DNA of 40,537 bases from a virus. The stretch lies in the IMG/VR virus record IMGVR_UViG_3300028797_000289, positions 1 through 40,537 of that record. The stretch is one strand, 5' to 3'. The translations under genes were made by a program, and so were the position numbers. The notes below the pieces were generated by a model that searched no databases, was not told where the DNA came from, and worked only from the letters and a program-made list of their open reading frames with translations. Below, piece after piece: positions 25,463 to 26,234 of the stretch (its first letter is position 1; every line of letters begins with the position of its first letter).

Positions 25463-26234
25463 ATTCCTATCTCCTTTTATCTCTTGTTTTGTTAATAAAA
25501 TAACTTAGTTATATTTATGACAGACCTTCGCCTTACTGGTAATAACCTTCGCCTATGTTCAACCAATGAGGAGATATACCTGAGCATTAAAGAGCGACTT
25601 TAATGCTATATACCCCATCCGCATAGCAGATAAATATGCAATATATCCTATCTGCATAGCAGACAAATCTCATAAAGGATTTGTTACCTTTAACTTTCAG
25701 CTACCTTTCAGTTAATATTACGAATTTTTTCTTACTGTAAAAAATCCCAATATCAAAGTCAACGCACATTTAGCCTACTCGTACCCTGACCCAATCTTAT
25801 ACCTGACTTTCATCAGTTCAAGTGCGAAACCTCTTAGTGGATTTCCAAGGTTTGTTTAATTTTCCAGGTCAAACCTAACTTGGATTGGTGCTCTTGTTAA
25901 GAACCCCATATTGCGAAGCCGATTGGAACAGTGTTTTTAGTCGCGATTACACCAGCGCTGTTAACCGAAACCTTTAAGTTCTTAAAGGCGACCTATGTAC
26001 ATCACTGCATAGATTCTTTTTACACAAAGGGTATCCTCTTTGTTTCATTATTTCCAATAATGGTTAACACCTCAGCACTATGGAATTAGTGTTTATCACT
26101 GAGTTGAATCATAAATATAACTAAATTATTTTATTTAGTTAAAGTCCCAGGTAAGGATTCGAACCTTACTACTCTAAGAGCAAGCCACTCTGGGAACCTC
26201 TATATTACAACAAAAGAGGGTAATGGGTGAAAGT

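Follow-up and report, generated by a model that had tools for sequence, protein, structure and literature searches.

ROOL (Rumen-Originating, Ornate, Large) RNAs belong to a small number of natural RNAs that are known to form closed cages with no protein involved. The family was described by Weinberg et al. in 2017 (PMC5737381), and structures have been determined by cryo-electron microscopy (cryo-EM) for env-120 by Kretsch et al. in 2025 (PMC12286853) and for ROOL-Efa and ROOL-Firm by Ling et al. in 2025 (summarised in PMC12515178); cryo-EM and mass photometry revealed RNA-only octameric cages (PMC12286853, PMC12515178). ROOLs typically occur in phages near islands of transfer RNA (tRNA) genes (PMC12286853, PMC12515178, PMC5737381), and the published suggestions for their role include encapsulating tRNAs, ribosomal particles or other cargo. 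Here we examine a 40,537-nt stretch of viral DNA, IMG/VR record IMGVR_UViG_3300028797_000289, which was analysed over its full length and is called the window below. Our subject is a region at about 25.5–26.1 kb, which a preliminary description had read as either a structured non-coding RNA (ncRNA) or a replication origin. We conclude with high confidence that the region is a ROOL gene of ~640 nt, on the minus strand and within a phage tRNA-gene array; in annotation, it is to be labelled as an ncRNA gene rather than as an origin.

Identity and fold of the region

The Infernal search against Rfam that the preliminary description proposed was run on the whole window at curated thresholds, and it returned RF03087 (ROOL) on the minus strand at 25502–26127, scoring 275.6 bits where the gathering score is 99.1 (E = 3.3e-62). 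The match is untruncated, covering model positions 1–574 of 574. When the stretch 25300–26350 was rescanned permissively, with matches accepted up to E = 1, ROOL alone matched inside the region; the remaining matches were a tRNA-Met at 26233–26306 and chance-level ones overlapping that tRNA. The suspicion of a structured ncRNA was borne out, but the forms suggested for it or named for the check—a Y/vault-like RNA, a transfer-messenger RNA (tmRNA) or an intron remnant—found no Rfam match there up to the same E-value.

Conserved ROOL motifs align to the consensus with high posterior probability. They include GGAUAC, CAGUGAU (twice), CGCAAUA, CUUGAA-N5-GAAA-N5-GUAUAA and GUCGCUC, and further GUACGAGUAG, CUGAAAG...CUGAAAGUU, GGUAACAAAUCC and GGCGAAGG; all are invariant, or nearly so, across the subgroup of relatives described below. 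The ROOL of the window is a new, divergent member of a known RNA family, found in the typical setting of that family. The gene and its parts, in window coordinates, are listed here.

25494–26135, minus strand: ROOL RNA gene including the full closing helix (Rfam match, pairing and covariation)
26109–26135, minus strand: 5' strand of the closing helix, P1 (inverted repeat; pairs with 25494–25520)
25710–25769, minus strand: variable linker loop of ~60 nt (low-posterior loop in the Rfam alignment, model positions ~350–407)
25603–25668, minus strand: 33-nt tandem duplication, an extended hairpin (expansion segment) directly 5' of the GUCGCUC-loop hairpin (repeat search, Rfam alignment and local fold)
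25592–25598, minus strand: conserved hairpin loop GUCGCUC (subgroup conservation)
25545–25554, minus strand: ACCTTCGCCT, copy 2, contributing to the 3' strand in a long-range helix (Rfam alignment, model positions ~520–530)
25524–25533, minus strand: ACCTTCGCCT, copy 1, read as AGGCGAAGGU in the RNA, where it forms a conserved hairpin with a GAAG loop close to the 3' end (aligned to the consensus GGGcGAAGgCCC hairpin)
25494–25520, minus strand: 3' strand of P1 (inverted repeat, pairing and covariation)

The several stems noticed earlier in the region hold up, as both strands fold far below shuffled controls: the minimum free energy is -188.6 kcal/mol on the minus strand (z = -8.9) and -154.2 kcal/mol on the plus strand (z = -8.2). 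The difference of 34 kcal/mol favours a minus-strand RNA, as do 14 G-U pairs in the projected structure. The region is bounded by a 27-nt inverted repeat (25494–25520 and 26109–26135), reported as 96% complementary; all 27 positions of the resulting helix P1 form standard pairs if G-U is allowed. For the remaining helices, the Rfam consensus structure was projected onto the window sequence. In the register of the model itself, 123 of 155 consensus pairs are canonical and P1 is out of register, with 10 of its 16 pairs non-canonical; once the 27-bp inverted repeat was taken as P1, the count rose to 144 canonical pairs among 166 projected ones.

To find relatives, we searched public contigs, both viral and metagenomic, for sequence patterns conserved in ROOL. 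A profile search with nhmmer placed ROOL in 80 of the first 120 pattern loci, and the profile was needed for these—a single-sequence nhmmer search of the first 124 loci gave four matches. A second conserved pattern yielded 15 loci in the viral-contig and metagenome scans. The ROOL of the window belongs to a divergent subgroup that includes the loci L016, L072, L125–L137 and L131. Rfam calls full-length ROOLs in L072, L016, L061, L131, L132, L134 and L137 (259.8–369.3 bits, with L131 at 259.8) and a 5'-truncated one in L077 (195.6 bits); in these eight relatives, ROOL always lies between tRNA genes of the same strand. The closest relative is L131, with ~76% identity over the best-aligned 382 bases, or roughly the 5' 60% of the RNA. 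BLAST against 50,697 GenBank phage records, with the region in distant mode and 21.5 kb of the window in near mode, gave no usable relative, and only two tRNA-like matches of ~80 nt.

Two of the relatives also carry a 'drum' RNA (RF02958; 47.6–48.3 bits, gathering score 43), at 11068–11166 on the minus strand in L132 and at 3287–3385 on the plus strand in L134. In both, it shares a tRNA array with ROOL and is located ~0.5 kb downstream of it; the Rfam scan at curated thresholds has no match to this family in the window.

Support for the fold comes from a MAFFT-based alignment of nine subgroup sequences, in which the structure is taken from the family consensus and the sequences are mutually related. 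These caveats noted, the margin is large. The cells of the projected structure are 80.2% paired, compared with 35.6–49.4% when partners are slid by 1–3 columns; 69 of the 166 pairs have changed on both sides, and the observed values were reached by none of 500 shuffles. Within P1, 95% of cells are paired and 11 pairs have changed on both sides; the GAAG-loop hairpin (helix 29) is paired in 100% of cells and has two covarying pairs. Compensatory changes among relatives support the ROOL fold in the window.

Two further parts can be compared with published structures. The linker-containing region measures 85 nt in the window, against a family median of 97 nt, and by analogy we would equate the linker at 25710–25769 with that of env-120, which is disordered and lies inside the cage (PMC12286853). 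The GUCGCUC loop reads GTCGCTC in eight of the nine aligned sequences and GTAGCTC in L016, with six of seven positions invariant. Where it stands in the consensus makes it the probable counterpart of L18, a kissing loop of the cryo-EM structure that is described as highly conserved and as forming bridge B6, linking the two half-shells.

Direct repeats and the origin reading

The preliminary description had drawn attention to iteron-like direct repeats. Its pair of TGCATAGCAGA(Y)AAAT elements is the core of a 33-nt tandem duplication (25603–25635 and 25636–25668), the units of which are 84–85% identical. Two copies are present as described, but their spacing is 33 nt from start to start instead of 31, and the first copy begins CGCAT, not TGCAT. 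An exact repeat, GCATAGCAGAYAAAT, occurs twice in the window, at 25621–25635 and 25654–25668, where shuffling gives an expectation of 0.02 and none of 100 shuffles held two matches. The duplication of ACCTTCGCCT was confirmed as well, with copies at 25524 and 25545 (expectation 0.04; again no shuffle in 100 with two matches).

In the Rfam alignment, the tandem duplication sits in a 38-nt insertion at a small hairpin. A local fold (-42.3 kcal/mol, z = -4.3) pairs the two 33-nt units together into an extended hairpin that stands beside the conserved hairpin in a three-way junction. We measured this expansion as the distance between two anchors flanking the hairpin in a survey of 62 ROOLs: with a median of 32 nt, the distance is 30–39 nt in 47 of them, and the 77 nt of the window is the maximum. 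In the subgroup of the window the distance is 42 nt or 70–72 nt, and it reaches 107 nt in L131, the closest relative; at the position of the repeats, relatives carry unrelated sequence of differing length. Because the duplication forms a hairpin and the anchor distances vary by lineage, the supposed iterons are a lineage-specific expansion segment of ROOL. The site of the second ACCTTCGCCT copy, in the long-range helix, reads GATGAAGATT or AATGAAGATT in relatives. The subgroup provides a series of expansion hairpins (32, 42, 72, 77 and 107 nt between the same anchors) that marks where the fold tolerates insertions.

These results bear directly on the idea that the region is a phage replication origin, with iterons bound by an initiator protein and an AT-rich unwinding element. 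The region does hold two direct-repeat pairs that are commoner than chance, and it has AT-rich flanks and no long ORF (open reading frame). However, each repeat has two copies only, and iteron arrays usually have at least three at regular spacing; both repeats map to helices of the full-length ROOL match, in the RNA one 33-nt unit pairs with the other, and the sequence at the repeat position is not kept among relatives. The GC-skew plot recommended as a check turns elsewhere: the cumulative skew has its minimum at ~11 kb and its maximum at ~20 kb, at switches of gene orientation, and declines smoothly through 25–26 kb with no turning point at 25.5–26.1 kb. In the whole 40.5-kb window there is a single DnaA-box-like site, against 5.8 expected, and beside the region no initiator gene could be identified—the neighbours are tRNA-Met and orf122, an ORF without a family match. 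Moreover, the related contig L122 lacks the entire segment. As far as sequence analysis reaches, the origin reading is refuted, and we hold it to be very improbable. Another class of structured RNA has been considered too, namely a Y/vault-like RNA partnering neighbouring proteins, a tmRNA, or the remnant of a group I or II intron; the window encodes a major vault protein (MVP) homolog and a DUF2828/DUF7788 protein labelled 'RNA-binding protein' in PHROGs, which would suit such a class. Nevertheless, in the Rfam scan up to E = 1 ROOL is the sole match inside the region, and it accounts for all 640 nt of it, the tmRNA of the window lies elsewhere (24461–24690), and the sole Y-RNA-like signal is weak and falls at 23668–23778, so the probability of this class is close to negligible.

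The tRNA array and the ROOL cassette

The block at 21.5–30.6 kb is an array of 22–25 tRNA genes (22 called by ARAGORN, 23 by Rfam) and the tmRNA, every one of them on the minus strand; domains of phage tail type and structural domains are encoded in other parts of the window. In the order of transcription, the locus runs tRNA-Glu(ttc), promoter, tRNA-Met(cat), a tRNA-like element, ROOL, orf122, a terminator-like hairpin and tRNA-Leu(taa). The features that flank ROOL are the following.

26593–26621, minus strand: sigma-70-type consensus promoter, TTGACA, 17 nt, TG, TATAAT (12 of 12 matches; predicted)
26233–26306, minus strand: tRNA-Met (CAT), directly preceding the tRNA-like element and ROOL (ARAGORN and Rfam)
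26141–26212, minus strand: decayed tRNA-like element between tRNA-Met and ROOL, with a T arm (GGUUCGAAUCC) and an acceptor-like stem (fold and homology to L131)
25094–25462, minus strand: orf122, 122 aa, with an AAGGAG ribosome-binding site, starting 31 nt past the end of ROOL (ORF list)
25053–25074, minus strand: terminator-like hairpin and then a T run, after orf122 (pattern match only)

The region had been called the longest ORF-free stretch of the window. This holds at a threshold of 60 aa, where the gap runs from 25463 to 27173 and consists of tRNA genes beyond 26140, but not at 50 aa, where the gap at 23524–24831 takes its place. The only ORF of at least 40 aa inside the region is at 25931–26089 on the plus strand (52 aa).

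Several details of the array may be recorded here. The two tRNA callers differ at three minus-strand sites: tRNAs at 22195–22267 and 27913–27975 (63 nt only) are called by Rfam alone, and a tRNA-Cys at 22363–22435 by ARAGORN alone. The tRNA with anticodon UAU (labelled 'Ile') at 30460–30548 on the minus strand is 89 nt long, the length of a tRNA with a long variable arm. A Peptidase_C1 domain (papain-family cysteine protease, 69.8 bits) also lies within the array, at 29626–30393 on the minus strand.

The gene order of L131 is the same as that of the window: tRNA-Glu, tRNA-Met, a tRNA-like stub, ROOL, orf122 and tRNA-Leu(taa). L122 keeps this order as well, but has only 48 nt between tRNA-Met and orf122; its orf122 is 75% identical to that of the window, against 55% in L131. 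The alignment defines a cassette of ~740 nt, made up of the decayed tRNA and ROOL (~26226 to ~25488 in the window), that is either present or absent, and the window and L122, two related phages, give a clean presence/absence comparison for this cassette. Among 55 loci related by their DUF2828/DUF7788 gene and having at least 6.5 kb of upstream sequence, four carry ROOL. Since only these four have it while 47 of the 55 have tRNA arrays, ROOL is a sporadic accessory of a conserved tRNA-array module, optional and travelling with the tRNA genes as a unit. In keeping with this, a single strain has been tested in a published study, and ROOL proved non-essential there (PMC12286853).

The promoter at 26621–26593 is the likely start of a transcript carrying tRNA-Met, ROOL and orf122. 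A promoter also precedes tRNA-Met in L122 (12 of 12 matches) and in L131 (11 of 12), and this shared position ahead of tRNA-Met in the three genomes is the strongest argument at hand that ROOL would be co-transcribed with that tRNA. L131 has an additional 12-of-12 promoter between ROOL and orf122; in the window no promoter-like site was found between the two, which is why its orf122 would probably be on the ROOL transcript. The tRNA-like element may act as a processing signal for the 5' end of ROOL; its counterpart in L131 (~1270–1345) is more complete as a tRNA-like sequence, but has an aberrant anticodon loop.

Homologs of orf122, with 55–77% identity, lie inside the tRNA arrays of L121, L122, L123 and L131. 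The protein has no significant family match, and sub-threshold similarities to Csm6 HEPN (E = 0.014) and CARF (E = 7e-4) were treated as noise. Its C-terminus may resemble the DNA-binding module of homing endonucleases.

The position of orf122 raises the question of whether ROOL acts mainly in cis, as a long 5' leader controlling the translation or stability of orf122. The RNA ends 31 nt before the start codon and the window has no promoter-like site in between, as a leader would have it; yet homologs of orf122 occur without ROOL in L121, L122 and L123, in L131 a promoter of its own separates orf122 from ROOL, and the ROOLs of other relatives are flanked by tRNAs on both sides, with no ORF. 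We consider a cis-acting leader highly unlikely. That the gene could be a decaying relic, homologous to ROOL but no longer under selection, deserves slightly more credence, although it too is improbable. The score of 275.6 bits is low against the 313–369 bits of most relatives (L131, at 259.8, is lower still), 22 of the 166 projected pairs are non-canonical, a decayed tRNA adjoins the gene, and ROOL is dispensable in related phages, as its presence in four of 55 comparable loci indicates. Against decay, all helices are present over the full length of the model, the terminal helix is paired at 27 of 27 positions, and the loops GGAUAC, CAGUGAU, GUAUAA, GUGAAAGUU, GUCGCUC and GGCGAAGG are intact; the differences from L131 are largely compensatory, and a consensus promoter lies upstream.

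Some of these points count against our own identification of a ROOL gene at work in this phage, and they are gathered here. Given the score below that of most relatives and several non-canonical consensus pairs, which lie in the three-way region on the 5' side and in one of the long-range helices, some decay of the ROOL of the window is conceivable. The tRNA-like element, in the window and in L131 alike, is called by neither ARAGORN nor the Rfam tRNA model, and in the window its fold is no better than that of shuffled sequences (z = -0.9). Transcription of the RNA, its processing sites and its mature ends are predictions from sequence; cage assembly is likewise predicted for the ROOL of the window, by analogy with the other ROOLs for which it has been shown. 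Finally, the expansion of ~45 nt adjoins a loop that may be an intermolecular contact, and it could alter assembly.

Possible working, phage context and known systems

We propose the following course for the ROOL gene of the window. The RNA would be transcribed together with tRNA-Met from the conserved promoter at 26621–26593, and nucleases of tRNA processing would cut the flanking tRNA and tRNA-like elements, releasing ROOL from its precursor; release of this kind fits because ROOL is packed directly between tRNAs in other relatives. The freed RNA would fold into a flat monomer, and monomers would then assemble without protein into a hollow homo-octameric cage ~28 nm across, with the variable linker of ~60 nt (25710–25769) inside it.

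The phage around the gene has several features of its own. An 822-aa homolog of eukaryotic MVP is encoded at 36032–38500 on the minus strand, with a Pfam match to MVP_shoulder (82 bits) and a weak one to Vault_3; in a phmmer comparison with PDB sequences, its residues 317–774 match residues 330–811 of MVP (E = 7e-14). Phage MVPs have already been reported in a preprint (bioRxiv 10.1101/2023.11.10.566534). Relatives of the protein, at 54–73% identity, occur in 45 viral contigs, mostly of 75–195 kb. Within 10-kb flanks of the vault-like gene, none of these 45 contigs has a ROOL; in the window itself the two are 9.9 kb apart, at the edge of such a flank.

Downstream of the tRNA array, at 19662–21179 on the minus strand, lies the 505-aa DUF2828 and DUF7788 protein, which matches phrog_850 'RNA-binding protein' (E = 2e-126) and has relatives in many viral contigs. 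Of the 55 loci with this gene, 47 have at least five same-strand tRNA genes upstream within 10 kb, with a median of 10. The protein may be TROVE/vWA-like; sequence searches gave no sign of this, with no TROVE/Ro60 signal in NCBIfam, in PDB sequences or in Pfam up to E = 10. AlphaFold, run on the single sequence, gave a model with a mean pLDDT (predicted local distance difference test) of 41, which is unusable for a fold search.

The array also contains a tRNA with anticodon CUA (24306–24381, minus strand), an amber suppressor that ARAGORN labels 'Pyl' and that relatives L121–L123 carry too. If TAG is read as a sense codon, neighbouring ORFs merge into long, abutting ones: 1915 aa with eight TAGs at 4784–10531 (minus strand), 1044 aa with 12 TAGs at 15424–18558 (plus strand) and 479 aa with two TAGs at 12099–13538 (plus strand). 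Pfam matches run across such codons, Peptidase_S74 spanning the in-frame TAGs at 18283, 18292 and 18406, and CotH spanning one near 7297; the genes near the tRNA array have no in-frame TAG. Together, this suggests that the late genes of the phage are TAG-recoded.

Two further small features of the array remain to be mentioned. A miniature tmRNA of 230 nt (24461–24690, minus strand) scores 56.9 bits against a gathering score of 47 for a model of 374 positions, and ARAGORN makes no call there; its tag, read by eye from the alignment, would be ANDYFYPTALAA. A tmRNA is also found in the tRNA arrays of L121, L072 and L137. At 23668–23778 on the minus strand there is a weak full-length match to YrlA (RF02553), with 28.3 bits against a gathering score of 69 (E = 0.001–0.01). 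The match stands 1.7 kb from the ROOL region and directly after tRNA-Pro, in an otherwise unexplained gap of 548 nt (23665–24212). A long stem closes a T-arm-like hairpin in it, and it could represent a tRNA-like RNA, a Y-like RNA or chance.

ROOL is found here in a probably TAG-recoded phage rich in RNA-handling genes. It is tempting to regard it as a movable cassette whose cage works with an RNA-centred gene block—the tRNA array, the miniature tmRNA, the amber-suppressor tRNA, the DUF2828 'RNA-binding' protein and the vault-protein homolog—though we think this unlikely. If it were true, phage tRNAs (the suppressor among them) or ribosomal particles could be sequestered or protected by the cage, or have their release timed by it; its action would fall during the switch to the translation of recoded late genes, and the hairpin expansion would be a docking site for a partner. 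The presence of ROOL in four of 55 loci argues that the cage would be at most an optional enhancer of the block. The locus adds no new kind of element, but it offers comparative material for experiments on the role of ROOL and for cage engineering.

Among known systems, YrlA (RF02553) and vault RNAs resemble the region in being non-coding and associated with Ro60/TROVE or vault proteins, and the window encodes a vault-protein homolog; however, they are ~90–140 nt long, and none of them matches the ROOL region. Iteron-type origins of plasmids and phages share the short direct repeats in an ORF-free, partly AT-rich stretch; they differ from a locus with two copies per repeat, no initiator gene, skew change or DnaA-box cluster, and repeats that are ROOL helices. 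GOLLD is closer in character. It is also a large, ornate phage RNA near tRNA genes, GOLLD env-38 likewise lies downstream of a tRNA-Met, and GOLLD too forms an RNA-only cage, although a 14-mer; in contrast, its sequence and secondary structure are unrelated, and the Rfam scan found no GOLLD in the window.

The closest system is the ROOL family itself. The copy in the window departs from it in belonging to a divergent subgroup, so that a single-sequence nhmmer search matches subgroup members alone along the full length; in its ~45-nt expansion, made by the 33-nt duplication where most ROOLs have a minimal hairpin; in a closing helix of 27 bp, compared with 16 bp in the model; and in being followed by an ORF instead of a tRNA. 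In other respects the likeness is close: the full consensus is present, with the same helices, the conserved loops and a variable linker in the matching position; the length of ~640 nt lies between the family mean (581 nt) and that of env-120 (659 nt); and the gene is embedded in a tRNA island of a phage genome, on the same strand as the tRNAs.

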